Shown here one piece after another: positions 2,687-19,552 of a DNA stretch of 64,000 nt. The stretch's first letter is position 1. Every line of letters starts with the position of its first letter. Position numbers and translations under genes: made by a program. This DNA comes from Escherichia phage SUT_E1620. The DNA is taken from the sequence record OQ939939; one strand, written 5' to 3'. Below the pieces are notes generated by a model. That model did not search any database. It was given only the letters and a program-made list of their open reading frames with translations, and was not told the origin of the DNA.

Positions 2687-2695
2687 TAATAAATC

Positions 2696-3178: not shown

Positions 3179-3191
3179 TATAAAAAAGTAG

Positions 3192-3220: not shown

Positions 3221-3253
3221 ATTTGTATAAATTGAATCAGAGGAGTTTCACAA

Positions 3254-3661
3254 ATGTCAGATCGTTACTATACTCAGATGGCTAACCATTACAATATGGC
3301 TCCGTATGAATTGAACATCGCATTACGTGACCTCGATTCACCAGAGCGTGCAAAACTTGAGAAAAAGGCGGGAATTCGTATGTCTAGCAAGGGCAAGAAA
3401 CTTACTCGTATTGACTTAAATACCATGCTAATGGAAGAGCTTGGCGTGAATATTGAAGGTCAGAAGTTGCCTCTCAATGTTCTTGAAACGATGCTGGATA
3501 AAGTCAAAAAGAAAACCTATAAGAAAGTACAAGTACCGGAAGGCAGGCTAAAAGCCCCTTATCAGGCTGCTGTATCTGAGTGCTTAGGTGCTACCTTAGA
3601 TCTTAGCACTGCAACTGTTAAAGTGATGCGTGCGTTTTTAGAGGCAGTTAATAAATTGTGA
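3254..3661 (+). CDS. hypothetical protein
   Basis: 135 aa; SD GAGGAG; no recognised domain. Confidence 0.4.
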   Translation: MSDRYYTQMANHYNMAPYELNIALRDLDSPERAKLEKKAGIRMSSKGKKLTRIDLNTMLMEELGVNIEGQKLPLNVLETMLDKVKKKTYKKVQVPEGRLKAPYQAAVSECLGATLDLSTATVKVMRAFLEAVNKL

Positions 3662-4185
3662 TTACCCAAGAAAGATTGAAGGAACTTCTAGAGTACAATC
3701 CAGATACAGGGATATTTATATGGAAGAGCCGAAAGATAGATAGAAGTGGTTTTAACAAGCAATTCGCAGGAAAAGTTGCTGGCAATCCTCAAAATAACGG
3801 TTATATCAATATTACTGTTGATTCCGAAGTTCATGGGGCACATAGATTAGCTTTTCTTTACATGGAAGGCTATATGCCTGCAAGGGTAGACCACGAAAAC
3901 ATGGTTAGGTCTGATAACAAATGGCTTAACCTACGAGAAGCTACAGTCTCTCAAAATGGTGCTAATGCGTTAAAGTATTCGAACAATAGTTCTGGATATA
4001 AGAACGTATACTGGACAAAGAAAACGTGTAAATGGCAAGTACAGGTTATGAAAGAGGGTAAATCCTACTCGGGAGGATACTTCACAAACCTCAAAGATGC
4101 TGTAGAAACTGCCAATGAGTTAAGATTTGAATTATTTGGGGAATTTGCCCTATATGAACCATTTAAAGGAGATAAACATGAGTAA
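3658..4185 (+). CDS. HNH homing/nicking endonuclease
   Basis: 175 aa; HNH_3-like segment HGAHRLAFLY...VDHEN...DNKWLNLREAT...N; GTG start overlapping the upstream stop. Confidence 0.55.
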   Translation: MITQERLKELLEYNPDTGIFIWKSRKIDRSGFNKQFAGKVAGNPQNNGYINITVDSEVHGAHRLAFLYMEGYMPARVDHENMVRSDNKWLNLREATVSQNGANALKYSNNSSGYKNVYWTKKTCKWQVQVMKEGKSYSGGYFTNLKDAVETANELRFELFGEFALYEPFKGDKHE

Positions 4186-4468
4186 ATTAGTATATCTACT
4201 GAAGGGATCTACCTGCAATCCTTGTAAACTTTTCGAGCCTGTATTCGATAAAGTAGTACAGGACTACAGTCTAGAAGTTCATAAAGAGACTGATAACACA
4301 GAACTTATGCAGAAATTTGGCGTTCGTCAGGTTCCTGTAGTAGTTCTAGCAGATCGTCTCCCTAATGGTCGTGTGGAAGCCAACCACATTCTGATTGGTC
4401 GTCAACTTCGTAAAGAAACTATGCATGACGCAATAAAAAACTTCCTGGAAGATAATCCAGAAGATTAA
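4178..4468 (+). CDS. thioredoxin-like CxxC protein
   Basis: ATG at 4178 with AGGAG SD (the track ORF starts earlier at 4127); CNPC redox-type motif near the N-terminus. Confidence 0.4.
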   Translation: MSKLVYLLKGSTCNPCKLFEPVFDKVVQDYSLEVHKETDNTELMQKFGVRQVPVVVLADRLPNGRVEANHILIGRQLRKETMHDAIKNFLEDNPED

Positions 4469-4475
4469 TAAATCT

Positions 4476-4505
4476 AACCCAGATCTTAGCTGATCTGGGT
4501 TTTTT
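4476..4505 (+). terminator. rho-independent terminator
   Basis: AACCCAGATC-loop-GATCTGGGTT hairpin followed by TTTTTT. Confidence 0.6.
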
Positions 4506-4510
4506 ATTAC

Positions 4511-4539
4511 TTGCTTTCTGCTAAAAATTTTGATATAAT
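4511..4539 (+). promoter_or_regulatory. T5-type strong sigma70 promoter
   Basis: TTGCTT-17-TATAAT plus downstream TATAAATTGATGAGAGGAG box. Confidence 0.55.
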
Positions 4540-4570
4540 ATATGTATAAATTGATGAGAGGAGTATCACA

Positions 4571-4951
4571 TTGAATTACGCATATCTTATAATACATAAC
4601 AATGTGGTCTGTGGTACTCGAGCTGTAGAGATGGGAATCACAGAAGAAAAGTATAACTCTTTGTCTAAATCGGAGCAAGAATACTATGTTGAACAGGCTG
4701 CTTGGGAATATGCTGAGGCTTATCCCGAAGAACGTGAAGGCCGTGTTACTATTGTTGTTACTTTGGGGCTGGTGGGCTGTGATACCGAAGTTGATACAGA
4801 TCTAGAAACACTTGAAGAATGGGAAGAATTGGATATTGCAGAACAAAATGCTATCATCCGTCAATCTTTCTGGGAAGCAGTAGACTGTCACGTTGTCTTT
4901 GAGCCAAATGATACAGAAGCTGAAAAACACACTAATTGGATGACTCGATAA
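4571..4951 (+). CDS. hypothetical acidic protein
   Basis: 126 aa; TTG start after GAGAGGAG; no recognised domain. Confidence 0.4.
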   Translation: MNYAYLIIHNNVVCGTRAVEMGITEEKYNSLSKSEQEYYVEQAAWEYAEAYPEEREGRVTIVVTLGLVGCDTEVDTDLETLEEWEELDIAEQNAIIRQSFWEAVDCHVVFEPNDTEAEKHTNWMTR

Positions 4952-5814
4952 TGAAAAAAGAATTTAACCTGCACGAAATGTTAGTAGTACCAGACGATGT
5001 TAACCTGTTCTTCGTAGGAGATATTCACGGCTGTAATGATATGCTGGAAGATGCTCTTAAACTAGCAGGATATAAAGAAAAGCGTGACTATGTTGTCTGT
5101 GTTGGCGACTTAATTGACCGTGGCCCGCAGAACTTACAGGTTCTAGCCAAATTCTTATATAACCCACGCTTCCGCAGCGTTCGTGGCAACCATGATCAGT
5201 TTATGATTGCTGGTGACTACGCCAACTGGATGTATAATGGTGGAATGTGGGCAATGAATGATCTAGATACCGATACAATTAAAGGTATCGCAGAAGATAT
5301 GGCAGTTAAAATGCCAGTATTCATGACTGTACTCCATCGTGGCAAGAAATATGGTGTTGTTCATGGTGGAATACCATTCCGATATAAAGATGCGGGATTA
5401 GATGTACATACACCTAATTGGGACGATATTATTGATCATATCGCTGCAAGTGAAAATGATCCTAATGATCATCCTAGTTATTACATTGAGCCATATCTAT
5501 GGGATCGTGATGTAATTCAGGAAATTGGTTTTCATCTGTCTAAGCAAGGTGCAGAGCACCCCTATTTCCAGCGTTATGCAGGATTTAAAGATGAACTGAC
5601 TGTGGAAGTGCCAGAAGTTGAAAGTGTAGATTTCGTATTCCATGGTCACACTGGTGTTCCTTACCCAATTCTGTACAAGAACCGTGTTTATCTCGATACT
5701 GGCGGTGTTTTCAACGGGCAGTTGACGGTTGCGCAAGTTAATGATGAAGCCGGTAAGATCATGACATTTACCACAGATAAAAATGATAGCTGTGGTGTAC
5801 AGAGGATTCTATAA
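4951..5814 (+). CDS. Ser/Thr protein phosphatase (calcineurin-like metallophosphatase)
   Basis: GDIHG, GDLIDRG and GNHD motifs; TAATG coupling to the upstream gene (track start 4936). Confidence 0.7.
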   Translation: MKKEFNLHEMLVVPDDVNLFFVGDIHGCNDMLEDALKLAGYKEKRDYVVCVGDLIDRGPQNLQVLAKFLYNPRFRSVRGNHDQFMIAGDYANWMYNGGMWAMNDLDTDTIKGIAEDMAVKMPVFMTVLHRGKKYGVVHGGIPFRYKDAGLDVHTPNWDDIIDHIAASENDPNDHPSYYIEPYLWDRDVIQEIGFHLSKQGAEHPYFQRYAGFKDELTVEVPEVESVDFVFHGHTGVPYPILYKNRVYLDTGGVFNGQLTVAQVNDEAGKIMTFTTDKNDSCGVQRIL

Positions 5815-6182
5815 TGGAACGTGAAGAACGTTATGTAGTTATAAAGCTATCTGATATTGAGAAAGCCATAGAATTAGGACATATCACTCAAAGTAACTTT
5901 ACTGCTTTGGAGCATATCTTGTCCAAAATATGGTATAGTCGAGCACAACGTGGTAAAGAGGATCTTAAAACAGTCGTAGTAGAGCATGATTGGCCAGAGT
6001 ACGAAGAAGTCTGGAAGATGCTAGAGAATCGTGTTGAATTTGAACAAGCACGACAGGAAGAGGTTGACAAAGGCTACCAAGAAGCGAAAGAGCACCATGA
6101 GGTTTATGATGAAATATTCAAACTTCGTGGTATTAGTAGTTATTGTCAGGGCTGGAATAAATATGCGGAGGAAGTTCTGTAA
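5814..6182 (+). CDS. hypothetical protein
   Basis: 122 aa; TAATG-coupled start. Confidence 0.4.
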   Translation: MEREERYVVIKLSDIEKAIELGHITQSNFTALEHILSKIWYSRAQRGKEDLKTVVVEHDWPEYEEVWKMLENRVEFEQARQEEVDKGYQEAKEHHEVYDEIFKLRGISSYCQGWNKYAEEVL

Positions 6183-6388
6183 TGAAGAGATTACTACTAT
6201 TATCAGTACTAATACTAGCTGGATGTGATTCCTACGACGATAATATGAGATTTACTGCAGAAGATACAAAACACTTATGTGATGTAGCTGGAGGTGAGCT
6301 AGATTATTCCAGTATTCAAATTGGACTCACAAAAGGTATATTCTACGATAGTTATACTATTACATCCACATGTGTAAGGAATAAATAA
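6182..6388 (+). CDS. small lipoprotein
   Basis: 68 aa; signal peptide with lipobox LAGC. Confidence 0.45.
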   Translation: MKRLLLLSVLILAGCDSYDDNMRFTAEDTKHLCDVAGGELDYSSIQIGLTKGIFYDSYTITSTCVRNK

Positions 6389-6978
6389 TGAAAGTTAAAT
6401 TCTGGAGTGAACTCCACTTAGACCACCCAGGGATTCTTCGTTTTCGCCCCTGGTTTAAGAACATGAAAGAGCACGATGAGTATATCCTAGATACTTTGTC
6501 CAAGCACATTGGCAAGCGTACAAAACTTGTGCTGCTAGGAGATAGTGCCATGGGGCGAGAAGGGTTGGCCAAGTTGAAGTCGGTTATCCACAACGTGCCT
6601 AACCAACTAATTATGGGAAACCACGATGCTGAGCGTCAGGGTCTGCATATTAAAGATCTTATAGACGTTTATGATGATATTCAGGCTCTAGGTAAGCAAA
6701 CAGGTGGTGGCAAGAAGTTTTGGCTGTCACATTGTCCATTGCACGAAGCAGAACTTCGTGGTAGGCTAAACATTCACGGACATGTGCACACTAATTCTGT
6801 GCGTGACCCACGTTATATCAACGTCTCTTTTGAGATGAGCAAGACTCCTATTCCTCTAGAGGATATTGTGTCGGGCAAATTCACAAGCTATGATAAAGTG
6901 GTTAACTGCACTACTGGTGAAGTACTCCAAATCGATGAAGATGTGGCAGCGGTATTGAGGGGAGATATCAATGTTTGA
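6388..6978 (+). CDS. metallophosphoesterase
   Basis: 196 aa; GD..., GNHD and GHVH motifs. Confidence 0.5.
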   Translation: MKVKFWSELHLDHPGILRFRPWFKNMKEHDEYILDTLSKHIGKRTKLVLLGDSAMGREGLAKLKSVIHNVPNQLIMGNHDAERQGLHIKDLIDVYDDIQALGKQTGGGKKFWLSHCPLHEAELRGRLNIHGHVHTNSVRDPRYINVSFEMSKTPIPLEDIVSGKFTSYDKVVNCTTGEVLQIDEDVAAVLRGDINV

Positions 6979-7044
6979 TTTTGATGGCATGGCTCGTGAG
7001 ATATTTATAGCAATAGGGATAGTAGTTCTTATCTCTTTCTTTAC

Positions 7045-7069
7045 GGGCCTAGGCTTAGGCCTTTTATTT
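7045..7069 (+). terminator. rho-independent terminator
   Basis: GGCCTA-GGCT-TAGGCC hairpin followed by TTTTATTTT. Confidence 0.45.
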
Positions 7070-7080
7070 TAAAACTTCAT

Positions 7081-7109
7081 TTGCTAAAATGCTTAGTTTT
7101 CTGTATAAT
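7081..7109 (+). promoter_or_regulatory. T5-type strong sigma70 promoter
   Basis: TTGCTA-17-TATAAT plus TTTATAAATTGATGAGAAGGAA box. Confidence 0.55.
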
Positions 7110-7139
7110 TACTTTATAAATTGATGAGAAGGAATCAAA

Positions 7140-7571
7140 ATGCAAAAGATTGATAAAGCACTCTTAATCGCAACAGCTGATAAGTTTGAGCAAGTTAAAG
7201 CTACTTTTAAGGCAGTCTTTCAGTCCTATGTTCAAGACAAATCGAACCCTATTTCTGAGCGTTTGATGATGTGGGAATGTTTTGCTTGCAATGCTCTGCT
7301 AATTTCCGATTATAAGGGAGAAGTATCTGAGGAATTGCATGAGATCTTTATTAATGAGGATACTCCACGCTATCAGTTAGTGAACTTCCAAGATCTAGCT
7401 GAGCAAGTTATTCCTGATGATCTTTGGGACAAGTATTACGGTGATCCTGAAGAAGATGGTATGGAACCTGAGAAGTGCATAGAACTGATCTGTAAGGATC
7501 ATCCTGAAATTGCTGAGAAATTTGAGTTAGTATTTGCTTCTGAGTTCTCAGGTTTCGTTAACGATTGGTAA
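7140..7571 (+). CDS. hypothetical acidic protein
   Basis: 143 aa; SD AAGGAA. Confidence 0.4.
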   Translation: MQKIDKALLIATADKFEQVKATFKAVFQSYVQDKSNPISERLMMWECFACNALLISDYKGEVSEELHEIFINEDTPRYQLVNFQDLAEQVIPDDLWDKYYGDPEEDGMEPEKCIELICKDHPEIAEKFELVFASEFSGFVNDW

Positions 7572-7588
7572 GTAAATAAAAAATTCAG

Positions 7589-7617
7589 TTGCTTTTAGCT
7601 TTAAAATTCTGTATAAT
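7589..7617 (+). promoter_or_regulatory. T5-type strong sigma70 promoter
   Basis: TTGCTT-17-TATAAT plus CATAAATTAATGAGAGAGGA box. Confidence 0.55.
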
Positions 7618-7649
7618 AAGTTCATAAATTAATGAGAGAGGAAATTCTA

Positions 7650-7901
7650 ATGGAAAACATGACTAAAACTGAAATGGCTAACGTTCTGGCAATTCTCCTC
7701 GATATGCAGGGTTTTGAAGGTCAGCTCATGAAGATGTCTATTCCGGCAATGAAAAAGATGTACGATTCTCTGAACAAGAATGCTATGGCATTCAACCTCG
7801 CAAAACAGGAAGCACGTTTTGCGAAAGAGCATCAAGCAACTGCCGAACGTCGTGCAGCATCTTTTGAGCGTGAAGTTAAGCAACTAAAAGGTAAGAAATA
7901 A
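7650..7901 (+). CDS. hypothetical protein
   Basis: ATG at 7650 (residue 7 of the track ORF) follows SD GAGAGAGG. Confidence 0.4.
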   Translation: MENMTKTEMANVLAILLDMQGFEGQLMKMSIPAMKKMYDSLNKNAMAFNLAKQEARFAKEHQATAERRAASFEREVKQLKGKK

Positions 7902-8314
7902 TGACTTACAGCCAATTCTTCTATTCACTAGGGCTTGGTGCCTTAGTTTCACTCTGTATTTCGATGGGCACGACGGGCTATATGCTTAGTCAAAGAGATG
8001 CAGATTTACCAAAACCAGTAACTAAAGAAGTATACGTTTATGCTAGTCCTGAAGTACAAGCAATAGCGGAACGTAATAGAGTGCTCGCAGAAGCAAACGT
8101 TGCACTTAAACAAACAGAATTAGATGAAGCGTTATCGAAATATTCTGGGGTTGAAGTAGTAGATGCCTACAAAATGGAAGACTCAATTGAAGTCAAGCTT
8201 CAAATTGAAGAGGGTAAAAGATTCTGTAAAATGAATGATTCCTTCTTAGTAAAAATTAAGTTTTATGAAACTATAAGCCCCTACATTAAATGTAGTAATG
8301 GAGTAACGGATTAA
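7901..8314 (+). CDS. hypothetical membrane-anchored protein
   Basis: 137 aa; N-terminal TM; TAATG coupling. Confidence 0.35.
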   Translation: MTYSQFFYSLGLGALVSLCISMGTTGYMLSQRDADLPKPVTKEVYVYASPEVQAIAERNRVLAEANVALKQTELDEALSKYSGVEVVDAYKMEDSIEVKLQIEEGKRFCKMNDSFLVKIKFYETISPYIKCSNGVTD

Positions 8315-8595
8315 TGATTACAGAAATTTTAATTGGATTGCTGGTTCTCACGACTTTAGCAGCAATTGGTGGAATCATTGGCATTCTTAATGCTAATAAA
8401 AATATGGAGAGGATGCGCCTCACCAATGATGGGCTAGTTAAACGCCTTGTCGAACAGGAAGAAGATATCGAATTAGCCCAAAGACGTTCAGATCTCCTTA
8501 AAGAAAAGCTAATGAATATTGAAACTCTTGTTGGTAACACTAAACTTCCTATTAAAGTCCTGCGCGCTCAGGTAATCACGGAGATTAAGAAATGA
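8314..8595 (+). CDS. hypothetical membrane-anchored coiled-coil protein
   Basis: 93 aa; N-terminal TM; coupled start. Confidence 0.35.
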   Translation: MITEILIGLLVLTTLAAIGGIIGILNANKNMERMRLTNDGLVKRLVEQEEDIELAQRRSDLLKEKLMNIETLVGNTKLPIKVLRAQVITEIKK

Positions 8596-8837
8596 TGTTA
8601 ATTATCTTAGCTTTTTATCTGGTTATTGTTGGTGTTCTGGTTACTAAGTATCATACCTGGACCCCGAAGAACGTTGGTAAAGTAGCACTGTTTGTTCTGC
8701 CAGTTCCTATCATCATCGTTGCAATGCTGTTCACGATGTTGGCCGGTAAAGTGACAAAAACTGACGTTAAACGCATTGTAGACGAACTACAGCAATCTTC
8801 TGACATGATCGAGGATATTCTGAAAGATGAAGCTTAA
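8592..8837 (+). CDS. hypothetical membrane protein
   Basis: 81 aa; two hydrophobic segments; ATGA overlap. Confidence 0.35.
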   Translation: MMLIILAFYLVIVGVLVTKYHTWTPKNVGKVALFVLPVPIIIVAMLFTMLAGKVTKTDVKRIVDELQQSSDMIEDILKDEA

Positions 8838-9159
8838 TTTTAGTGAATTAACCCTGCTGGACGAGTTTCTAGGTTTTGTTACTGAACGTGGGTTTATTAA
8901 TGTAGATCCTCAGACACTAGAAGTCTTGCAATCCATCCAGAATAAAACTAAAACAGATCTGGAAGACTTATGGCGACCACTTTCTGAGCTAACTCCTCTT
9001 AATATGAAAGTGATTGTTAAAAATATTGAAACTGGTGAAGAACGTGAGATGGTTCGTAAAGAACTGGCTAATAGTTATTCTCCAGAGTCCCTAGTGATGC
9101 ATCATGACGATGAACCAGAAACACTTTGGACAGCCCATTATATTTGGCGTCTGCCTTGA
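8827..9159 (+). CDS. hypothetical protein
   Basis: 110 aa; overlaps the upstream gene. Confidence 0.35.
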   Translation: MKLNFSELTLLDEFLGFVTERGFINVDPQTLEVLQSIQNKTKTDLEDLWRPLSELTPLNMKVIVKNIETGEEREMVRKELANSYSPESLVMHHDDEPETLWTAHYIWRLP

Positions 9160-9259
9160 TTGATTTAACAACTGTTACGGCAATCCTAATCTTCGGTTTA
9201 GTGGTTGCCGTTTTCATAATCGTTGAGCAGGCCAAAGTAATACGGAGACTTAAAAATAG

Positions 9260-9460
9260 ATGATTAATTTTTATAACCCTAACTTGCAGAAAGCAACGTG
9301 GGATTACTTTATAATTCTACCAGCTTTTATGTTAAGTTGTGCAATCATTAACATTATGTATCAAGAAGCTGGTTGGACAGTCCAAGATTTCCACATTTCA
9401 CAAGTTCTTCCTTTCATGTATGAAGGCGTTATCGCAGCAATAAATGGAGTTCGTAAATGA
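9260..9460 (+). CDS. hypothetical small membrane protein
   Basis: 66 aa; hydrophobic. Confidence 0.3.
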   Translation: MINFYNPNLQKATWDYFIILPAFMLSCAIINIMYQEAGWTVQDFHISQVLPFMYEGVIAAINGVRK

Positions 9461-9924
9461 CAGCACTGCAAAGATTACAGAATTACTGGTTTGATGGCCA
9501 ATTTAATGATTTATTCATCCAGTTGTTTGTCGAAACGAACGGACGTTTTAATTACCGCTTCTTTAATACTTTCCATGAAACGAAGTTCTCGCATACAGAG
9601 ATTAACGCAGCGATTCAAGATCTCACTGGTTCTAAGGTAATTCCTTATCGTGATGTAGATTTTGCACCTGACTGTTTTGGTTTTGAACTGTTTAAGAAAG
9701 CATATAAGTTCGGTAAGTTCGAAGATGCACGACATTGGGTTCATGACTTCTGGTATAATACCGATATCGTCCCTAGCCGTGTACTGATCCTAAACTGGAT
9801 TGCTAAACAACATCCGCCGAAGGCACAATCGGCATTCCTTCCAACTGATACAGGAAATCTTTACCATGACACAAAAGAAAAATCCAGTGCTAGAGCAGAT
9901 GAAGCAGTTGGAGAAGCAGATTGA
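9457..9924 (+). CDS. hypothetical protein
   Basis: 155 aa; ATGA overlap with the upstream ORF. Confidence 0.35.
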   Translation: MTALQRLQNYWFDGQFNDLFIQLFVETNGRFNYRFFNTFHETKFSHTEINAAIQDLTGSKVIPYRDVDFAPDCFGFELFKKAYKFGKFEDARHWVHDFWYNTDIVPSRVLILNWIAKQHPPKAQSAFLPTDTGNLYHDTKEKSSARADEAVGEAD

Positions 9925-10249
9925 GGAAGGAAGCGTTGATGGACAGTCAATTGTCAATCATGCTTTTGATCTTACAGTAGGATGTGCTAATCCGCTGGTG
10001 GCAGGTGAAACAGCAGATATTCTTGGGCTTTTAATGGCAGTTGGCCAGTTAATCGAGATTACCCAAGAAGAGCTAGACAATGATGAAGAAGTAACTGTTC
10101 ATGATGTTCTTGGTGCTCTAGATCTGATTGTTAATGCCTATGCCTATAAACGCCGCCACTCAATTGATGAATATCTAGTTTCTCGTGAGATTACCGAATC
10201 TCTTCTGGAAACTGCTGATATGGCCTTAAACGGCAAGCAACTTCACTAA
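9866..10249 (+). CDS. hypothetical acidic protein (start uncertain)
   Basis: internal ATG at 9866 with AGGAAA SD; overlaps the 3-prime end of the previous ORF. Confidence 0.25.
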   Translation: MTQKKNPVLEQMKQLEKQIEEGSVDGQSIVNHAFDLTVGCANPLVAGETADILGLLMAVGQLIEITQEELDNDEEVTVHDVLGALDLIVNAYAYKRRHSIDEYLVSREITESLLETADMALNGKQLH

Positions 10250-10269
10250 TCCTAGAGGCCAGGACTTAA

Positions 10270-10812
10270 TTGTTCTGCCCTTTCGTGTATACTATGAGAG
10301 ATAAAATAAACGAATTACTTTATGAGGAAGCATTACAATTCCCCATAAATAGATTCACTAAATCAGATGGATCTATTAATAGAACTAAGCTCAAACAACT
10401 TCATCCAGACTTCCAGCAAGATGCACTTAATCTTATCTTTATCAGGAGAGCTGTAGAAGCACATGGTAAGTTCTTTGGATATGAAAGAGTTAAGTATAGA
10501 ACTATGCAACAGCAGGTTGAGATCTATTGCCCAGATCACGATGGTTATTTCTTGCAAACTGCACGGTCTCACTTAGAAGGACATGGTTGCCGATTATGCG
10601 CTCATAAAGTTGTGACACGCTTAACAGAATATGGAGTGTACACCGTACCAGCACCTTTCCACAAATTTGTAGTTGACGGTGAGCATATAATTTGGTATAA
10701 TAAAGATCAAAAGTTAAAACAGGAGTTAAAGAAAGATGGAGTACGTAGTCTGGTCAAACCCATTAGCTTTACTCTCCCACAAACTGTTCAAGACGACGTG
10801 GGGCAGGAATGA
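10270..10812 (+). CDS. hypothetical Cys/His-rich (zinc-binding?) protein
   Basis: CPDHDG...HLEGHGCRLCAH cluster; TTG start, or alternative ATG at 10294. Confidence 0.35.
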   Translation: MFCPFVYTMRDKINELLYEEALQFPINRFTKSDGSINRTKLKQLHPDFQQDALNLIFIRRAVEAHGKFFGYERVKYRTMQQQVEIYCPDHDGYFLQTARSHLEGHGCRLCAHKVVTRLTEYGVYTVPAPFHKFVVDGEHIIWYNKDQKLKQELKKDGVRSLVKPISFTLPQTVQDDVGQE

Positions 10813-12360: not shown

Positions 12361-13082
12361 GTATAAAAAAGAATTTAGCAGAGATTATTAAGTTAGCTAG
12401 AGCTTGTAATGGAAAGAATGTTTCCGAACTTAATGAGTTAGAAGCTCATGCAGTAGCATTTTGTGCAGAGTTTTATCCAGCATATATTAATGCTAGTGGG
12501 CAACCTAAATATAATAAAGATGCAGAAGAAGTCACATTAGCTCCTTCATATATTAGTTTACGTCGTCTGATTCAAACTGTTGATCCTACTATTAAAGGAT
12601 TTTCAGCAGATTCATTCCACGTCTTTGCAGATAAAGAACTCCCGCATTTTAAAGAAGGAAATGCAAAGTCATGTTTAGAATGTTATCCTAATATTCTGAT
12701 GATTCCTCAAAAGCAATGTAAATACGATCATCTCCCTAGACTTACAAAGAAAGTAGAACCACCATATTCTTCTCTATCTGAATTAAAGCTAGGAATCGTA
12801 TCTACACTTGCGCAGGTTCATCTAAGTATAGTTGACGAATCAACATCATCTAACCATATTCTAGATGCTGCTCACTTTGAAATCTTACGTGATCCTGAAC
12901 AAGCTAGAAAAGTTGCAAGATCTGTTAAGTTTGATATCGAAACAATTCTTGACACTAAACAAGAAACTAGACCTAGAGGAAGTGTAGATTATTCTGCGCT
13001 AAATTCCGAGTCATCTTACCTAGCAACATTCCTTTTCATGGCATCGAAGGGAGTCATACTCAAAGTCAATCACGATCTATAA
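12357..13082 (+). CDS. hypothetical protein
   Basis: 241 aa; last gene before the repeat-rich region. Confidence 0.35.
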   Translation: MSIKKNLAEIIKLARACNGKNVSELNELEAHAVAFCAEFYPAYINASGQPKYNKDAEEVTLAPSYISLRRLIQTVDPTIKGFSADSFHVFADKELPHFKEGNAKSCLECYPNILMIPQKQCKYDHLPRLTKKVEPPYSSLSELKLGIVSTLAQVHLSIVDESTSSNHILDAAHFEILRDPEQARKVARSVKFDIETILDTKQETRPRGSVDYSALNSESSYLATFLFMASKGVILKVNHDL

Positions 13083-13099
13083 ACGTTAGCAAAATCTTC

Positions 13100-13128
13100 T
13101 TGACATTATTTGAGCTGCATGTTATAAT
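13100..13128 (+). promoter_or_regulatory. consensus sigma70 promoter reading into the repeat region
   Basis: perfect TTGACA, 17-bp spacer, perfect TATAAT. Confidence 0.5.
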
Positions 13129-13162
13129 AATCTCATAGATTAAAAACATCAACTTGTTTTTA

Positions 13163-13292
13163 CCTCTAGGCCGTAGATTTACATCATTCCTCGTAGGAAA
13201 ATACTTGATGACGGTTCTGCTTGCAGGTTCTCGTCAATTGTTCTTCCTCCCCGAGACTCAGGAGGATGTATCAAATCGCACGCGCCTAGAGG
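13163..13292 (+). ncRNA. candidate structured RNA (cloverleaf-like, about 130 nt)
   Basis: 9-bp closing helix CCTCTAGGC/GCCTAGAGG enclosing three local hairpins, just downstream of the consensus promoter; no convincing ORF. Confidence 0.2.
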
Positions 13293-13486
13293 GGCTAACT
13301 CTCATGAAATGGGGGTATATTAACTTTTATTTACCTTATAATATTTAAAGGCAATATTTGTGTTCAAGATGATACACCGGTTGCCGCTCATCTGCTAGGA
13401 CGGCACAACACTTTCTAGTAGACTCCTAAGTTTCTAGGAAAACTCACGCATTCTAGGGCAGTTTCTCTCCAACGTTACATATCCTA

Positions 13487-13526
13487 GGGCGGTTTCCTAT
13501 ACAGGGCGGTTATAGGGAGGGCGGTT
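13487..13526. repeat. three copies of GGGCGGTT spaced 15-17 bp
   Basis: direct reading; embedded in a CTAG-rich stretch. Confidence 0.5.
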
Positions 13527-13571
13527 ATTTCTAGAAGACATTTTTCCAAAACACATTTCTGGAAATTGCTA

Positions 13572-14172
13572 TCGGATTTGCACATTATGTTTCTAGAAAT
13601 TTATGGTCGGATTTGCACAAGTGCCTAAGTTTTTAGGAACACATAATCTCCTGAAAATAGCAGCATTATTTCGGGCCGAAGGCCCATGATTGCCTGAGTT
13701 TTTAGAGCCACAGGAATTTTCACTTGTCAAGCTATTTTGCCTCATTTTGCTAATAAAATTTCGCTTTATCTCCCTTAATCTCAATTCTAGCCAAAACATC
13801 CCGCATTATCCCCAAAAATGCAGCAAACCGGTGCTAAAGCACCATCACCGCTGCTCCTTCCGTAGTTCCTCCCAAAAACCTCGTCAGATTCGCACTTCTC
13901 CCCAAACTCACACAATCACACACCTTCTCATCGAAGTAACAAAAATCTTGTCGGTTTTGCACACCTTAACACTTGTCGGATTTGCACATACTCTAGTAAA
14001 TCCAGCTGGATTGCATCGCAGTTGCGGATTGCTGGAGTTTTTAGGAAAATTCATTGTCGGATTTGCACACTACCAAAAATTTTGGGGTCGGATTTGCACA
14101 CTACCAAAAATTGTCGGATTCGCACATACACGCCCGCACGTAACACCCGTGGAGCAATGTCGGATTTGCACA
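13572..14172. repeat. iteron array: 8 or more copies of 13-bp TCGGATTTGCACA
   Basis: copies at 13572, 13607, 13951 (TCGGTTTTGCACA), 13976, 14057, 14088, 14114 (TCGGATTCGCACA), 14160; two copies share extended context GTCGGATTTGCACACTACCAAAAATT. Confidence 0.8.
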
Positions 14173-14176
14173 AAAG

Positions 14177-14196
14177 CGCAGGGCAATTGCCCTGCG
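14177..14196. repeat. perfect 20-bp palindrome CGCAGGGCAATTGCCCTGCG
   Basis: self-complementary by direct reading; sits between the iteron array and the tandem repeats. Confidence 0.7.
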
Positions 14197-14201
14197 ACTT
14201 T

Positions 14202-14369
14202 GAATGATAATGTTTCTCATTTAAGAAGTGGAATGCGAATGATAATGTTTCTCATTTAAGAAGTGAAATGAGAACTATTCAAAAAGTGAAATGATTCTCA
14301 TTTAAGAAAGGAAATGATTATCAGTTAGACAGTGGAATGCGAATGATAATGATTCTCATTTAAGAATGG
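14202..14369. repeat. four tandem about 35-bp direct repeats (GAATGATAATGTTTCTCATTTAAGAAGTG family)
   Basis: units at about 14202, 14237, 14288 and 14341; related copies near 14700, 18110 and 23770. Confidence 0.7.
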
Positions 14370-14393
14370 AAGTGAGAAACACTGTTATTTAAG

Positions 14394-14502
14394 TTATCCA
14401 CAGACTTATTAACAGCACGATTTGATTTGACAGAATCCTAGCCATTTTGAGGCGTTATTAACAGACTTATCCACAGCTTATCCTACTGTATAAATATACA
14501 GT
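14394..14502. repeat. left arm of about 110-bp imperfect inverted repeat with two DnaA boxes
   Basis: TTATCCACA at 14394 and 14467; palindrome CTGTATAAATATACAG; reverse complement aligns to 17989-18096 at roughly 80 percent identity. Confidence 0.7.
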
Positions 14503-14759
14503 ATTCCTATGTAGTGAATAATTCTAATATAGGCCTAAAACGTCCTGAATCGCATTCTAACGCGTTTAATTTTGATGGAGATACTAAAACAAGGGCAAAA
14601 TTGGAGGAGGCTTAAAAATTAGTTAGCTTGCTAACGATCACACAAGGCGACACGTAACACCTTAATCATTAGCAGGCTAACCATCGCGGGCGCGGTTAAA
14701 TGAGAATCACTCTCATTTGAGAATTGGGGGCACTCCCTGGTAGTTGCGCCCCGTTATTA

Positions 14760-14954
14760 TTAGTCTGGTAGTCGATGCGTGATCTTTTCCTCCTCCCCGT
14801 AGGAATCCACCAAATGCTGATAATAACCATCGGCATCATAAATAACGCTATCATATTCGCCACGCTCGACCGCTTGCCGATTCTCCGGCGTATCGGGCAC
14901 GTAAAAAACATCAACCATTGTACTGATTTTGGTTACAACAATTTTATTGCTCAT
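14760..14954 (-). CDS. hypothetical acidic protein (cassette gene)
   Basis: ATG at 14954 with AGGGG SD (the track ORF extends to a TTG at 14984); last gene of the minus-strand operon. Confidence 0.35.
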   Translation of the reverse strand: MSNKIVVTKISTMVDVFYVPDTPENRQAVERGEYDSVIYDADGYYQHLVDSYGEEEKITHRLPD

Positions 14955-15054
14955 AATAACCCCTAGTAAATATATTTTTGCCAATAGTGGCGAACGTTAT
15001 CGCCACCAGCGGAATCATTTGCAGCCTCAACATTACCCGCGAAAATATATAATC

Positions 15055-15399
15055 TCATTGCGCCACCTTTCGAAACGCTGTTTCAATACTATCCGCAGTG
15101 GATTGAATATACGCGCCTTTCATTATCAGGCGCTCGGTGCATATCTTGCGAAAAATATTAATAAAATCATCTTCATTTTCTGCAATTAATGCTTCACCCA
15201 TAACCTGAACGTCACAAGATGCAAAGGTCAAAAATTGAAACGCTAGTTCACGGGCAACGACCGCATTGATTTTATAATGCGCCTTGCCCTCATAAATATT
15301 AATAACGCCCTTATAAGCTGGTGAAAGCTGATTCAAATAGTTTGCTAGTAATGCCGGACGGCAATTAGCAACAAAACGATTGCCTTCATAAATAACCAT
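15055..15399 (-). CDS. hypothetical protein (cassette gene)
   Basis: ATG at 15399 lies 1 nt after the upstream stop (the track ORF extends to a TTG at 15438). Confidence 0.4.
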   Translation of the reverse strand: MVIYEGNRFVANCRPALLANYLNQLSPAYKGVINIYEGKAHYKINAVVARELAFQFLTFASCDVQVMGEALIAENEDDFINIFRKICTERLIMKGAYIQSTADSIETAFRKVAQ

Positions 15400-15400
15400 T

Positions 15401-15613
15401 TTATAACACCCCACGAAACGCAGCGTAAAAGGTGGCAAAGTGTTTAACCGTTTCAGCGATCACGTTGCCGCGCTTGTCGAATTTTTTCTCAGTAACACGG
15501 AAGGCGTTTTTATTTCGCGCTACATATTCAATTTTACAATCTTCCCGCTCGAACGTGTTAACGTCCACCAGCTTAAAGCCTTTTGAACGTGCAAGGGAAA
15601 CGTTACGAATCAT
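15401..15613 (-). CDS. hypothetical basic protein (cassette gene)
   Basis: 70 aa; SD AAGGAG; tightly packed. Confidence 0.4.
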   Translation of the reverse strand: MIRNVSLARSKGFKLVDVNTFEREDCKIEYVARNKNAFRVTEKKFDKRGNVIAETVKHFATFYAAFRGVL

Positions 15614-15615
15614 TT

Positions 15616-15765
15616 TTATTCTCCTTTACTAGTCATGCAGCCCAGCAGATAAGAAAATACAGCGATACCCGCACCAATAATAACCGCGTGAACGTCGAAA
15701 GCTATTGCAAACAAAGATAAAATAGCGCCCAAGATACCCGCCAGAATAGCTCGAAAAATAACCAT
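15616..15765 (-). CDS. small hydrophobic membrane peptide (about 49 aa)
   Basis: hand-translated MVIFRAILAGILGAILSLFAIAFDVHAVIIGAGIAVFSYLLGCMTSKGE; SD AGGAGG; not in the ORF track because it is under 60 aa. Confidence 0.35.
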   Translation of the reverse strand: MVIFRAILAGILGAILSLFAIAFDVHAVIIGAGIAVFSYLLGCMTSKGE

Positions 15766-15814
15766 TTGTGATAGCCTCCTAGTTATCGGGGGATATAATA
15801 TCCCCCGTTACTAA

Positions 15815-16045
15815 TTACATTAAAACAATTTTTGCAGCTTGTTTTTTGGTGCAATGTTCCGCCTTCAGGGTATCCAGCAAAAAGCCAGCCGTTTGCTGAT
15901 CGATTTTATCGGCGTTATATAGTTCCTGAATGGTATTATAGGTTTTAGCAATACCGAACTCCTGCACCATTTCATAGATGACAGCACGATTAGACACCCA
16001 GCCTTGAGCGGTGAACAGATGACTAGCAGAAGAATAAGCAACCAT
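15815..16045 (-). CDS. hypothetical protein (cassette gene)
   Basis: ATG at 16045 preceded by GGAGG (the track ORF extends to a TTG at 16078). Confidence 0.4.
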   Translation of the reverse strand: MVAYSSASHLFTAQGWVSNRAVIYEMVQEFGIAKTYNTIQELYNADKIDQQTAGFLLDTLKAEHCTKKQAAKIVLM

Positions 16046-16108
16046 TTTAAGCCTCCAAATTTTTGGGAAAATTTTCAACCGTCCTTAAACGGTGTAAAGG
16101 CATTATAA

Positions 16109-16138
16109 CAAAAAAGGCCACCAATTATGGCGACCTTT
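16109..16138 (-). terminator. possible rho-independent terminator (minus strand)
   Basis: imperfect hairpin AAAGGTCGCC...GGTGGCCTTT followed by U-run in the minus-strand transcript, between the 164-aa gene and the downstream genes. Confidence 0.3.
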
Positions 16139-16151
16139 ACAAAACTTTACA

Positions 16152-16646
16152 TTAAACTACTTGTAATGTTTCAATATTGAAACATCGTTTCAATTCGTCA
16201 TGCAAAACAGCGTATTCATCCCATCGGGTACTATCAGGGATATAAACAAGCTGTTTTAGTCGGTTTGCGTATATTACCGCTTTGTTACCAACTATCTCGA
16301 CGCCGCCATATTTAATAATTAATTTCATGACGGAATTAATAGGATCGCCGCCGTTTACATATGTGCCGGATTTACTTAATTGATAATGATAAAGGCTTGC
16401 ATATACATTATCATTCTCATACCATTCGCCAGTATCCTCGTCTTCATAGCCATCGCTACCAAAACGAGAAGCATTATCAATAGCCATTTCATGAGCGAAA
16501 GCGTCCAGATCCGTACCAGCAGGAACAAAGTATTCCTCGGTATTCCCCTCGCCGCAATAGCCAGTATGGCAATCGACTAAAATGATCATATCATGTTTAG
16601 CCGTGCTCACTTCCCCTAGCGAGAAGCCGTATTTTTCCTCAGCCAT
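16152..16646 (-). CDS. highly acidic protein of unknown function
   Basis: 164 aa; about 28 Asp/Glu against 12 Lys/Arg, concentrated in the N-terminal 80 residues; SD AGGAGG. Confidence 0.5.
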   Translation of the reverse strand: MAEEKYGFSLGEVSTAKHDMIILVDCHTGYCGEGNTEEYFVPAGTDLDAFAHEMAIDNASRFGSDGYEDEDTGEWYENDNVYASLYHYQLSKSGTYVNGGDPINSVMKLIIKYGGVEIVGNKAVIYANRLKQLVYIPDSTRWDEYAVLHDELKRCFNIETLQVV

Positions 16647-16711
16647 TAGTTAGCCTCCTATTAATTAACAAGGGAATAGTAAAGCGGGGTAACAATCCCC
16701 GCTTAATATTA

Positions 16712-17722
16712 TTACTCGCTTTCGGTGTTAGTGGTAAAAGTAGAAATATCGATACCTTTTACCATTTCATCAATCATTTCAGCGATGTTAAAACTTTGCA
16801 CCATTTCCAGCATTGCCGCTTCCATAGCCGCCCCTGCTACCGCTTTCGCCTTTTGGTTATTTGGGGCGTACTGGTCAACCGCTACACTCAGCAGGTTAGC
16901 AATCACTACTCGACCAATAGGCGTATCGATATAACCTTTGATCATGAATGGTGCTTTTTTAGCCGCTACTTTCGTAATTTGAGTTAATGCAATTTTACCC
17001 GCTTCCAGTTTTGCAGCATTTACAACAGCGGATTTATTGGCGGCAACGATATTGGCGATCTTGGTCATGGTATTTTTTCCTTTGTTTTCAGTGATTTGAG
17101 TATTAACGCTTTGAGTGTTAGAATTTACAGCATGTTTTTCCGTGCTGTCAATGATCTGATTCTCATCTTTCCAGAAAATAAAACCCGCTTCATGTACTAG
17201 TTCATTATATATATACGGGTATAATTTCGATGGTAATAAAAAATTACCGTCGCCATCAAAAGCCATTACCGCCGTATATTGAGATCCATCACTATCAGGC
17301 CTATGCCATCCAGCAGATAAATACTTCCAGATAACATCTAAAAACCCCTCAAGGCTAGAAAGTCCGTTTATTAAATCAAGCCCAATAAGCTCAAAATTAT
17401 TTATATTAAATGATTGACGGCCTGAATTGCTATGATACGCAACAATATTATTACCCTGCGCAATAATAAAATCGGTATCCGGCCCCGCTCCCTTGCCTGT
17501 AAAGATATGGCAATCACGATTATATAAGATAATCGTTGCCCCCTGCTTATATAAGGGTAGAAAACTATCCATATCATAGGCATCATAATCATCAAAAAAG
17601 TTTTGGTGAATAGTTTCAGCCTTGTTAATAAAATGTTTAATGCTGGTTGTTCTGCTACCATCCAGCAGGTTACGCAGCGCACCTTTTAAGACGGTTGCGT
17701 TATCTGGTTTATATAGCCTCAT
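16712..17722 (-). CDS. two-domain protein of unknown function
   Basis: 336 aa; SD GGGAGG; N-terminal about 190-aa domain, polar linker, Ala/Val-rich amphipathic C-terminal domain. Confidence 0.5.
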   Translation of the reverse strand: MRLYKPDNATVLKGALRNLLDGSRTTSIKHFINKAETIHQNFFDDYDAYDMDSFLPLYKQGATIILYNRDCHIFTGKGAGPDTDFIIAQGNNIVAYHSNSGRQSFNINNFELIGLDLINGLSSLEGFLDVIWKYLSAGWHRPDSDGSQYTAVMAFDGDGNFLLPSKLYPYIYNELVHEAGFIFWKDENQIIDSTEKHAVNSNTQSVNTQITENKGKNTMTKIANIVAANKSAVVNAAKLEAGKIALTQITKVAAKKAPFMIKGYIDTPIGRVVIANLLSVAVDQYAPNNQKAKAVAGAAMEAAMLEMVQSFNIAEMIDEMVKGIDISTFTTNTESE

Positions 17723-17988
17723 TTGTTGGCCTCCCTCGTTAATCGGTGAGTGAATGATAAAGGCAATTTTCTAGCATAGGCAAATATTATTTTACCTTTT
17801 TATTTTCCTTGCCTAGCGCCTAGTTTTATGCTAACCGCGCAGCGGTACAGTAAAGAGCAAAACACGGTGAAGCCACCAGGGCGACGGGTGAAGGCTTTAC
17901 TTTAATATTACCCCACCGCATTTAGCTCGTTAGAAAGCGTTTTAGGCCGCTTAAAATTGATTGCAGTTGTTAACACTACCCATTTACC

Positions 17989-18096
17989 CTGTATATTTAT
18001 ACAGTAGGATAACATGTGGATAAGTCTGTGGATAAGTCCTTATATCGCCGCCTATCGTGTCAAATCATTTTGTGCTGTTAATAACATTGTGGATAA
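17989..18096. repeat. right arm of inverted repeat with three DnaA boxes
   Basis: TGTGGATAA at 18015, 18027 and 18088; palindrome CTGTATATTTATACAG; inverted copy of 14394-14502. Confidence 0.7.
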
Positions 18097-18936
18097 CTTA
18101 AATGATAGTGGTTCTCACTTAGGACGATAGTTTCTTATAGTTATTATTTCTATCGGTTACGATTTCTTATAATTATTATTTCTCATTAATTTATAAGTAT
18201 ATTATATATCATGAAATAGTTAGTTGGCTAATGAGATTTTCCGTGATTAATAGTCTGCTAATAGTTCCGGCTGTTACAATCCACCAGCATGATTATCATC
18301 CTAGCAACTATTAGTCTGCTATCTTTCCGATGCATACTAACAAATAAAAGTCAATTAATTTATTTCATAAAATAAGTAGTTATCCACTGGAAAATAAAAG
18401 TCAAGTGGATAACTAGGAAAATTTCATTTTTGCTTTTGGGGATAAGTTATCAACAAGGCTAGAATGCGCCTAAAACGCCCTAGAACGCGATGAAAGTTTT
18501 AGCCATGCCATTGCATTGCCTACCCTCGTTTATCGCTACCACGAGCTTTTTAGTTTTTGTCAAGTAGGGCAAGGCAAATATAAATGAAAAAATTACTTGC
18601 CAACCTGCTGGGTTTTATGGTATTCGCGCGCCCGTTTCCTTTAATTTTAGTGCGCCGCGCCCAGGTCGCCGCACGGTGTCCGGTGGCATTTTGTCTTTAC
18701 GTTTCTTTACAAAAATAAGGTTGCGCCATTTTTACTATTTGCTATTATTTATCTCGTAGGGAGGCAATGACGAACTACACGGCGGGAAGTTTACCGCCAC
18801 GCTCTTTAAAAATTGGGTATATCTTAAAGCCTATCGGCGGTAAACTTATTCATTATAAGGAATCGACGATATGAAACAGACGCTTTTGATCACTGGCAAG
18901 CCTAGCAAGGCACTAGATAGCAAAACAAAAAACTTG

Positions 18937-18964
18937 TTGACAGTAGCGCAAAGATCGGTAAAAT
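18937..18964 (+). promoter_or_regulatory. consensus sigma70 promoter
   Basis: TTGACA, 16-bp spacer, TAAAAT. Confidence 0.5.
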
Positions 18965-19070
18965 ACCGATTCACGCAGTACAAGAAAGGTCGCCAGCAAG
19001 GTTTAGAAATGATCTGGAGAAATATTATGATTGACCTGAAAGAAAATCATAAAAAACTGCAAAAAATTGT

Positions 19071-19099
19071 TTGACAACCTAGCCGATAGGCTTTAAGAT
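19071..19099 (+). promoter_or_regulatory. consensus sigma70 promoter
   Basis: TTGACA, 17-bp spacer, TAAGAT; about 200-nt leader before the ATG at 19301. Confidence 0.5.
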
Positions 19100-19226
19100 G
19101 TACCCAGTTCGATAAGAGCGATAACTTGATAAAATTTGACGGTCGGTGCTTACCATAATGCGCCCCGCCCCCTAACGGGATATAGCGGCCTACGTGGAGT
19201 TCTTTAAATTGATTAAACTGGCGAGC

Positions 19227-19277
19227 GGATTGTTACTTATTACCTGCTACTTTCTAGCAGGTAATGCGGAACAATCC
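19227..19277 (+). promoter_or_regulatory. long two-tier hairpin in the 5-prime leader
   Basis: GGATTGTT/AACAATCC outer stem enclosing TACCTGCTA-CTTTC-TAGCAGGTA inner stem, just upstream of the SD. Confidence 0.4.
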
Positions 19278-19300
19278 ATCAAATAACTGGAGTTTATATT

Positions 19301-19552
19301 ATGCAAAACGTTATTACCGCGCCTAAAATTGGTCAATCTGTTTTTATTCCTTTCGTTACTAAAACGGACGAATTAACCGGAAAAGCCGAACGTATTAAAG
19401 GCGCGGCGCTTATGCCTTTCGATACAATCGACGCGGTATACGCTGAAAATGAACGTAGTAACAACGGCAAGCCTGTTTTTAACGTTCGCGTTAAATCCGG
19501 CGACGTTGTAAAGATCATTCAGAAGGATGATAAATGGCAAGCCATAGCATAA
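19301..19552 (+). CDS. hypothetical protein
   Basis: 83 aa; SD CTGGAG. Confidence 0.4.
   Translation: MQNVITAPKIGQSVFIPFVTKTDELTGKAERIKGAALMPFDTIDAVYAENERSNNGKPVFNVRVKSGDVVKIIQKDDKWQAIA

Follow-up and report, generated by a model that had tools for sequence, protein, structure and literature searches.

Facing arrays of DnaA boxes on either side of a pre-early operon in a T5-like phage: a candidate two-part site for host DnaA in the first-step-transfer DNA

The 64,000-nucleotide stretch of Escherichia phage SUT_E1620 (sequence record OQ939939) that was analyzed here, called the window below, contains two inverted repeats that carry DnaA boxes and enclose a block of seven genes. The two repeats will be called the arms and the genes between them the cassette. 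The question raised by this locus is what such a pair of arrays might do in a virulent phage. The explanation favored here, which as a whole we consider about as likely to be right as wrong, is that the arms form a conserved two-part site for host DnaA, and that DnaA bound there would take part in the pause of first-step-transfer (FST) DNA transfer. The initial annotation of this DNA called clustered DnaA boxes unexpected in a virulent phage. For T5 they are not new: the boxes at these repeats were reported in 1987 (Heusterspreute et al. 1987, as stated by Davison 2020, bioRxiv 10.1101/866236) and were surveyed in 25 phages in 2020, and a pair of arms with DnaA boxes is an already known feature of T5 and its relatives. 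The additions made here are modest. The arrangement found in phages Sugarland and My1 is recognized as an inversion of the same operon, which probably took place more than once; no inversion isomers were met among hundreds of records of close relatives; and the bracket formed by two box clusters is extended to Vibrio, Aeromonas and Proteus members of the family.

It is virtually certain that the window comes from a T5-like phage (Demerecviridae), whose genome it shows in reverse, and that the locus lies in the terminal repeat, which is the FST DNA. A 6-kb region matches 472 phage records, which with few exceptions belong to T5-like phages that infect Salmonella, Escherichia or Klebsiella, with Salmonella phage vB_SalS-SIA3lw as the best match (94.4%). 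In records that start at the left genome end, the matching segment is on the minus strand, between about 4.2 and 10.6 kb, where the annotations read LTR or DTR. Positions 83-10608 of T5 (NC_005859) align to positions 23734-13363 of the window in reverse, so that the terminal repeat runs backwards in the window, from the left end of the genome at about 23.8 kb down to the inner end of the repeat, placed by alignment to T5 10219, at about 13.7 kb. The sequence runs on for about 40 kb beyond the inferred left genome terminus (window 23734-64000). The source record is probably an assembly of a circularly permuted genome with collapsed terminal repeats, in which case the arm-cassette-arm structure would be present twice in the virion.

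The two arms, delimited by a repeat finder, are a left arm at 14370-14516 and a right arm at 17974-18120, which together form a 147-nt inverted repeat with 3457 nt between its copies. Their global alignment is gapless and contains 114 identities out of 147 (78%). The binomial probability of such a match at the local base composition is 7e-39 per position pair, or about 3e-29 when multiplied by all position pairs in the window. The inverted copies described in the initial annotation are therefore real, slightly longer than its figure of about 110 bp, and 78% rather than "roughly 80 percent" identical; the value is the same (85/109) over the shorter segments 14394-14502 and 17988-18096. The left arm is the orthologue of the IRD'-spacer-IRC' element of T5 (Repeat Region 3), with 91% identity to T5 NC_005859 9396-9542. 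The right arm is the orthologue of IRC-spacer-IRD (Repeat Region 2), with 81% identity to T5 6098-6237, and is positioned between the divergent pre-early operons. T5 itself carries the matching inverted repeat with its boxes, there split in two blocks.

In the annotation of T5, leftward pre-early genes (dmp, A1, A2, T5.007 and others) are followed by a divergent promoter region, the rightward T5.011-T5.017 operon and the "injection stop signal" (iss; 9140-10149), which includes a major nick. The annotated divergent promoters (5938-6012 on the minus strand and 6411-6489 on the plus strand) stand on either side of the right-arm equivalent, and a terminator (9275-9296) precedes the left-arm equivalent. 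As the orthologue of the left arm lies inside the annotated iss, the "DNA-transfer checkpoint" put forward in the initial annotation fits the locus.

Five perfect TTATCCACA boxes are present in the arms, two in the left arm (14394 and 14467, plus strand) and three in the right arm (18015, 18027 and 18088, minus strand), exactly as first counted. Three TTATTAACA variants, each located 3 bp from a perfect box, had been missed (14406 and 14455 on the plus strand, 18076 on the minus strand). The window contains six copies of TTATCCACA against 0.86 expected; five of the six are inside the arms, and none of 100 shuffles reaches six. Each arm consists of two pairs of boxes with 3-bp gaps, which amounts to four pairs and eight boxes overall. 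On the plus strand, the outer pair of the left arm (14394-14414) reads TTATCCACA-GAC-TTATTAACA, and its second box is always a TTATYAAC-type variant in the relatives, while the inner pair (14455-14475) reads TTATTAACA-GAC-TTATCCACA. On the minus strand, the inner pair of the right arm (18015-18035) is made of two perfect TTATCCACA boxes, and the outer pair (18076-18096) reads TTATCCACA-ATG-TTATTAACA. The distance between the outer and the inner perfect box is 73 bp in both arms (in the left arm from 14394 to 14467, start to start), and in both arms TTATCCACA reads toward the cassette. The location in the terminal repeat, the orthologous inverted arms, 147 nt long (such repeats measure about 131 bp or more) and several kilobases apart, and the eight boxes in pairs with 3-bp gaps place the locus among the T5-type IRC/IRD repeats.

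The relatives that were compared comprise 40 loci from viral contigs anchored on A2 (cited below by L numbers where needed), together with GenBank records, from about ten genera; A1 is encoded in 1,134 phage records. The 29 genomes of Tequintavirus and Epseptimavirus, window included, form the Type-1 set, and both arms are present in all 29 of them. In the other 28 genomes, the left arm is 89-99% and the right arm 81-95% identical to that of the window, which disposes of the possibility, named in the initial annotation, that the arms are unrelated low-complexity sequence. The arm alignments have no indels except for one gap column contributed by two Sugarland-type left arms. The outermost box fits TTWTNCACA in 25 left arms and 27 right arms of the 29, and the innermost box in 19 and 25, respectively. 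The arms are separated by 1560 to 4030 bp, depending on whether T5.011, the gene for a 164-aa protein or other genes are present, and the DT57C-like genomes retain both arms around a minimal cassette. Thus, the arms are conserved and the cargo of the cassette is not. The proposal of an acquired module is borne out in part only, by the variable content that takes up 1.56-4.03 kb between conserved arms. The comparison with T5-like relatives, which the initial annotation had suggested, shows that the arrangement varies in the length and content of the cassette and, between genera, in its orientation, and that both arms are retained throughout the Type-1 set. Concerted evolution between the two arms was considered and rejected, as each arm is nearest to its orthologue and not to its partner in 29/29 Type-1 genomes.

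In more distant relatives the long repeat is no longer detected. Aeromonas phage AhSzw-1 and Vibrio phage pVp-1 yielded no inverted repeat of at least 28 nt, and in the Proteus phage none of the repeats of at least 24 nt falls on the box clusters. Two box clusters bracket the equivalent gene block upstream of A2 in the Proteus, Aeromonas and Vibrio relatives. In Proteus phage M4H10_20 the left cluster is at 2867, 2919 and 2930 (plus strand) and the right one is at 7937 (minus strand). Vibrio phage pVp-1 has boxes at 5652, 5702 and 5714 (plus) and at 8184, 8276, 8287, 8330 and 8342 (minus), and Vibrio phage PG07 at 2160, 2211 and 2223 (plus) and within 4972-5118 (minus). Aeromonas phage AhSzw-1 has a single left box at 3364 (plus) and five boxes on mixed strands between 5040 and 5551. 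Vibrio phage D325 is less tidy, with two clusters about 3 kb apart on mixed strands. Perfect boxes number three in pVp-1 (0.30 expected) and six in AhSzw-1 (0.17 expected), and several box pairs in the distant relatives keep a start-to-start spacing of 11-12 nt. In the window, as in Sugarland, My1, the Proteus phage, pVp-1 and PG07, the boxes on either side are directed inward, at the enclosed block. The strongest argument available for selection on DnaA binding is that the motif persists, with little else detectably conserved, in phages whose hosts share one DnaA specificity. By this argument, DnaA binding is quite likely to be the property for which the boxes are selected.

By combining the position of the arms with what has been published on T5, it is possible to outline how such a site might act. 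The arms of T5 are named IRC-spacer-IRD and IRD'-spacer-IRC', and an architecture of eight boxes, grouped in pairs with 3-bp gaps around a spacer of constant length, is described for 25 phages (Davison 2020, 10.1101/866236); Wang et al. 2005 is a further source on the T5 repeats. In the proposal made there by Davison, membrane-bound DnaA binds both arms and thereby stops injection, and the recruitment of host DnaA suggested in the initial annotation coincides with this standing proposal. As the DNA enters from about 23.8 kb downward, the right arm is the first to reach the cell, followed by the cassette and the left arm, and a few hundred bp later the transfer pauses. Host DnaA, much of which is membrane-associated according to Davison 2020 (10.1101/866236), would load on both box arrays. 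The resulting nucleoprotein complex might then tether the FST DNA at the site of entry and contribute to the pause until A1 and A2, both of which are required for the restart of transfer, set the DNA in motion again. Such an element would work whatever lies between the arms: the length and content of the cassette vary, and the operon appears to have been flipped at least two times by recombination between the arms.

Several observations weigh against this explanation. A complex assembled on DNA that is already inside the cell is no obvious brake on DNA that is being pushed from the capsid. The repeats beyond the left arm (the eight GTCGGATTTGCACA copies and the AATGAGAA...TTCTCATT palindromes described below) and the major nick near 8% of the genome are equally good candidates for the stop. 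Boxes that deviate at position 6 (TTATTAACA or TTATCAACA), and are only putative sites for DnaA, make up three of the eight in this phage and about half across the relatives. In the left arms of close relatives the conservation of the spacer (0.95) is as high as that of the boxes (0.90-0.98), so that the conservation there is not specific to the boxes. The consensus WATCAANNNNTTR of integration host factor (IHF) has no match between 13500 and 19000. Even in T5, the role of the arms as a stop signal in cis is deduced from their position only, and according to a 2023 paper on BF23 and a 2026 paper in PNAS the role of the boxes and of iss still awaits experimental test. For these reasons we lean slightly against a part for the arms in the pause itself, while regarding it as a real possibility. 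The broader claim is that a two-part docking structure for host DnaA exists family-wide in Demerecviridae, from Escherichia to Vibrio phages, and is indifferent to the orientation, length and content of the operon; that DnaA is the long-sought factor which holds the first 8% of the genome; and that the arms have served as a recombination hinge for at least two flips. With all its parts taken jointly, this claim is somewhat less likely to hold than not.

The flipping of the operon is found in Klebsiella phages Sugarland and IME260 (L040-L042) and in Pectobacterium phage My1 (L043). There the arms are in place, and the genes between them are on the opposite strand and in reversed order. The flanks remain collinear with the window: the direct repeats are on the left, and the homologues of w67, T5.007, A2 and A1 on the right. 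In Sugarland there are a homologue of T5.011 over its full length (36% identity, E 9e-47), a 178-aa homologue of the 164-aa protein (E 1e-19) and a 115-aa protein that resembles the C-terminus of T5.015. In My1, T5.011 is matched by My1_019 (E 5e-37), the 164-aa protein by My1_018 (E 1e-12) and T5.017 by My1_016 (E 1e-17). In tblastx comparisons, the matches beyond the arms keep the order and strand of the window, two short repeat matches excepted, and those between the arms fall on the opposite strand, with one exception of 20 aa in Sugarland and one of 28 aa in My1. With Proteus phage M4H10_20, whose T5.011 homologue is more distant (E 1e-24), every match is on the same strand. Phage DU_PP_V is arranged like My1, and Epseptimavirus 1-29 and Enterobacter phage KKP_3711 are arranged like T5. 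Judged by the protein-level homology and the conserved gene order, it is the same operon that is inverted between the same arms in Sugarlandvirus and Myunavirus. A full-text search of the literature found no paper that calls the arrangement of Sugarland or My1 an inversion; the literature searched describes it only as "no homology, transcribed from the opposite strand".

In a neighbor-joining tree of A1, Sugarland joins Markadamsvirinae in every one of 300 bootstraps and in none of them joins My1, and the Proteus phage is outside. If the tree of A1 mirrors the history of the locus, there have probably been at least two inversions, or an inversion followed by a reversion. The crossover point of the Sugarland inversion was sought within the arms; the inverted repeat runs on, with indels, into the inner flanks, and the sequences are highly diverged. 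Small leftward genes occupy the space between the left arm and the inverted operon, in Sugarland at 4367-4781 of L040 (two predicted membrane proteins) and in My1 at 1938-2874 of L043 (My1_020-022). As these have no detectable homologue in the cassette of the window, genes appear to have been gained during or after the inversion. A further record, that of Klebsiella phage vB_Kpn_3 (L045, MZ079855), has at 900-9200 a cassette inverted as in Sugarland and joined at about 5.7-5.8 kb to T5-like T5.007, A2 and A1 genes. Its A1 is 88.7% identical to that of the window, and the C-terminal 69 aa of its T5.011 homologue are 94% identical to the window's. Either this is a natural hybrid of the two arrangements or the assembly is chimeric; the record is marked "partial" and contains frameshifts.

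The arms might have other functions, and four alternatives have to be weighed. That both orientations of the operon exist between the same arms in different genera, by at least two events on the A1 tree, could be taken to mean that the cassette is a programmed invertible module with two expression states, like the G segment of Mu or the C segment of P1. A synthetic inversion junction, modeled as a crossover in the middle of the arm, was searched for in 542 related phage records: it was contiguous in none of them, compared with 221 of the same 542 for the parental junction. No recombinase or invertase was found in the seven cassette proteins by searches of Pfam and PHROGs, and the flanking genes identified by homology (those of T5.007, A2 and A1) are not recombinases either. 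The arms are only 78% identical and show no concerted evolution, and the leader and promoter region of the operon is located between the arms, where it would travel with the cassette, so that flipping would not switch expression. Thus, of the properties of an invertible segment the locus has the terminal inverted repeats but neither a recombinase gene nor both orientations among close relatives, and a programmed switch is extremely improbable. The "invertible module" of the initial annotation holds on the evolutionary scale, for Sugarlandvirus and Myunavirus, and fails as a description of a switch. The inversions are rare fixed events, presumably produced by homologous recombination between the arms; these are record-level data, and rare isomers could still show in sequencing reads. 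It is also very improbable that the locus is a replication origin, or a site that manipulates host DnaA in the manner of datA or DARS, for example by blocking host initiation. The clusters of boxes with an AT-rich (29% GC) outer flank at each arm invite this idea, and the two opposed arrays recall the two halves of oriC. The R1 box of oriC, however, has the opposite orientation relative to the unwinding element, for the boxes here face away from their AT-rich side. The arms and their surroundings contain neither GATC nor an IHF consensus site, so that only the box cluster and the AT-rich flanks of an oriC-type arrangement are present. A comparison of the left arm and its flanks with 5,426 complete E. 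coli genomes gave no match, and the arms were therefore not copied from a DnaA-box region of the host. Eight boxes are too few to titrate cellular DnaA, and simple sequestration of DnaA, which the initial annotation had offered beside recruitment, is as unsupported as an origin. The origins of T5 were mapped near the middle of the genome, and its replication genes are outside the FST DNA (Davison 2020, 10.1101/866236).

Another possibility is that the arrays punctuate transcription: DnaA or another protein bound to them would insulate or regulate the pre-early operons, the left arm would halt RNA polymerase heading for DNA still held in the tail, and the pause would be due to other sequences. 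DnaA bound to its boxes can block a transcribing RNA polymerase, as reported for asnC and mioC. The T5 equivalent of the right arm stands between divergent promoters and that of the left arm follows a terminator; the boxes face the cassette from both sides in six genera, a symmetry that suits a boundary element; and the two-array arrangement survives inversion of the operon. Against this, the arms do not overlap the annotated promoters of T5 and contain only weak promoter-like matches (a promoter and terminator scan gave nothing but weak matches, with 27 promoter-like sites against 18.3 expected, and did not show the arms to be promoters). A terminator already precedes the left arm, and the constant place of the left array, a few hundred bp before the pause point, would be left unexplained. 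We regard this alternative as rather unlikely. The resemblance to DnaA boxes might also be incidental, with the site serving a phage protein (A2 or a complex of A1 and A2) or acting through DNA structure. This would agree with the need for A1 and A2 in the restart, with the embedding of the arms among conserved repeats (AATGAGAA-N3-TTCTCATT, the eight GTCGGATTTGCACA copies and CCTAAAACG), and with the left arm, where the conservation of the spacer outside the boxes and of the outer 24 nt equals that of the boxes. In the Vibrio, Aeromonas and Proteus relatives, however, little is detectably conserved beyond the strongly over-represented TTATCCACA, and such persistence points to a host factor of universal specificity rather than to a fast-evolving phage protein. 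As for structure, the 16-nt palindrome is the sole stable hairpin when each arm is folded as single-stranded DNA (z-scores -2.2 and -0.06); the palindrome apart, the arms fold no better than shuffled sequence, and their structure is not notable. An Rfam scan of 13000-19500 returned no match at E <= 0.1. A site independent of DnaA is decidedly unlikely.

The palindrome is present at the inner end of each arm, as CTGTATAAATATACAG at 14486-14501 on the left and as CTGTATATTTATACAG at 17989-18004 on the right; the two are exact reverse complements of one another, and the CTGTATA-N2-TATACAG element noted earlier in both arms is thereby confirmed. Its central dinucleotide is flipped between AA and TT as an exact palindrome in nine of 31 left arms and two of 31 right arms. 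Two more right arms have a TT center within an imperfect palindrome, and no AT or TA intermediate occurs among the 31 (the arms named in this analysis are those of L003, L011, L012, L015, L021, L023, L029, L037, L039 and L040). The flips suggest recurrent inversion of the palindrome, by way of a hairpin or of template switching, and not point mutation.

The other repeats of the region are numerous. The CCTAAAACG motif was found, as initially described, 18 nt inside the left arm (14534-14542, plus strand), 36 nt inside the right arm (17938-17946, minus strand) and outside the right arm (18469-18477, plus strand), and there is a fourth copy at 21351 (minus strand) within the A1 gene. The first copy belongs to the IRB-type repeat family and has an identical offset in L009, L012 and T5; the second, which forms part of an inverted repeat (I6) with 18468-18494, corresponds to IRB' of T5, and the third to IRB. 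On the outer side of the left arm there is an AT-rich (29% GC) repeat array with AATGATAAT-N-TTCTCATT (14202-14378, plus strand). It is preceded by eight direct GTCGGATTTGCACA repeats, Davison's DRD (13571-14172, plus strand), which extend across the inner boundary of the terminal repeat, at about 13.7 kb. The window has 12 copies of GTCGGATTTGCACA where 0.31 would be expected, on the plus strand in every case; further copies are at 11548 and 11785, and an adjacent pair at 55974 and 55989 (about 56 kb) is far from the terminal repeat. Imperfect palindromes of the form AATGAGAA-N3-TTCTCATT (7 matches against 0.69 expected) are present at 14203, 14238, 14342, 14699, 18101 and 23767. Copies flank the outer side of both arms, one is within the cassette, and one is some 50 bp away from the left genome end, inferred at about 23816. 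Beyond the right arm, at 18380-18455, there are four extra boxes one mismatch away from TTATCCACA, at 18380 (plus), 18404 (minus), 18437 (minus) and 18447 (plus). The boxes at 18380 and 18404 form a 15-nt palindrome (18377-18391 and 18401-18415), and the site is the position of the HNH homing endonuclease gene hegG in T5, which the window does not have.

The seven open reading frames of the cassette, all on the minus strand, are the homologues of T5.011, T5.012, T5.013, T5.014, T5.015 and T5.017 and the gene for the 164-aa protein, which is absent from T5. Protein identity to T5 ranges from 67 to 100% and is lowest for T5.013. The operon leader and promoter region (17723-17973, minus strand), just inside the right arm, aligns to the annotated T5 promoter 6411-6489 upstream of T5.011 and contains only weak matches to consensus promoters. 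The first gene (16712-17722) encodes the 336-aa T5.011 homologue, 96% identical to T5.011 and a member of DUF7566 (Pfam PF24450, E 7e-115). The gene for the 164-aa protein (16152-16646), present in some relatives, belongs to phrog_6741, a family of unknown function. It is followed by the homologues of T5.012 (15815-16078, 83% identity), whose real start is probably residue 12 of the listed reading frame, and of T5.013 (15616-15765), a small membrane protein. The T5.014 homologue (15401-15613; phrog_4227) is 100% identical to its T5 counterpart, and the database annotation describes it as an endonuclease that nicks abasic sites made by host Ung. The T5.015 homologue (15055-15438, 93% identity) probably starts at residue 14 of the listed frame, and the T5.017 homologue (14760-14984, 92% identity) is the last gene. 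Apart from DUF7566 and the T5.014 family, the cassette proteins fall into PHROG families of unknown function.

How the transfer of T5 DNA is stopped after 8% of the genome has been an open question since the 1960s, and these repeats are the leading cis-acting candidate. Any model has to account for the fact that the arms and the geometry of their boxes are kept, while the distance between the arms, the gene content and the orientation of the operon are free. In the distant Vibrio, Aeromonas and Proteus relatives the two-cluster DnaA-box motif is essentially all that is detectably conserved. On these comparisons of sequences, the constancy of the arms and their geometry, the freedom of the cargo and the persistence of the motif alone argue that the selected property may be the binding of host DnaA at two sites.

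Compared with known systems, the arms share with datA and DARS of E. coli a cluster of a few DnaA boxes outside an origin. In contrast to the arms, datA and DARS2 depend on IHF sites, and the two loci belong to the cell-cycle control of the host, a role that is not evident in a phage which degrades the host DNA within minutes; the locus is very unlikely to be of this type. The DnaA-oligomerization region of oriC likewise has close arrays of high- and lower-affinity boxes in two opposed groups. Those groups are adjacent and point apart, whereas the groups described here are 1.5-4 kb apart and point toward each other, in DNA that has no GATC or IHF consensus and no similarity to E. coli. The recombinase-driven segments (G of Mu, C of P1 and hin of Salmonella) are also gene blocks bounded by inverted repeats and found both ways round. 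They have short crossover sites, in contrast to arms of 147 nt that are 78% identical around a cassette that lacks an invertase, and here the two orientations occur between genera only and not within a lineage. The closest likeness is that to the IRC/IRD repeats of T5. The two phages differ in that five boxes are perfect here and three in T5, in that all eight box positions are kept here and one is lost in T5, and in that this phage lacks hegG, which stands beside the right arm in T5, and has the extra 164-aa gene in its cassette. They agree in the position within the terminal repeat, in the flanks (A2 and T5.007 next to the right arm, the boundary of the terminal repeat beyond the left arm), in arms that are 81-91% identical, in the four pairs of boxes and in the 16-nt palindrome.

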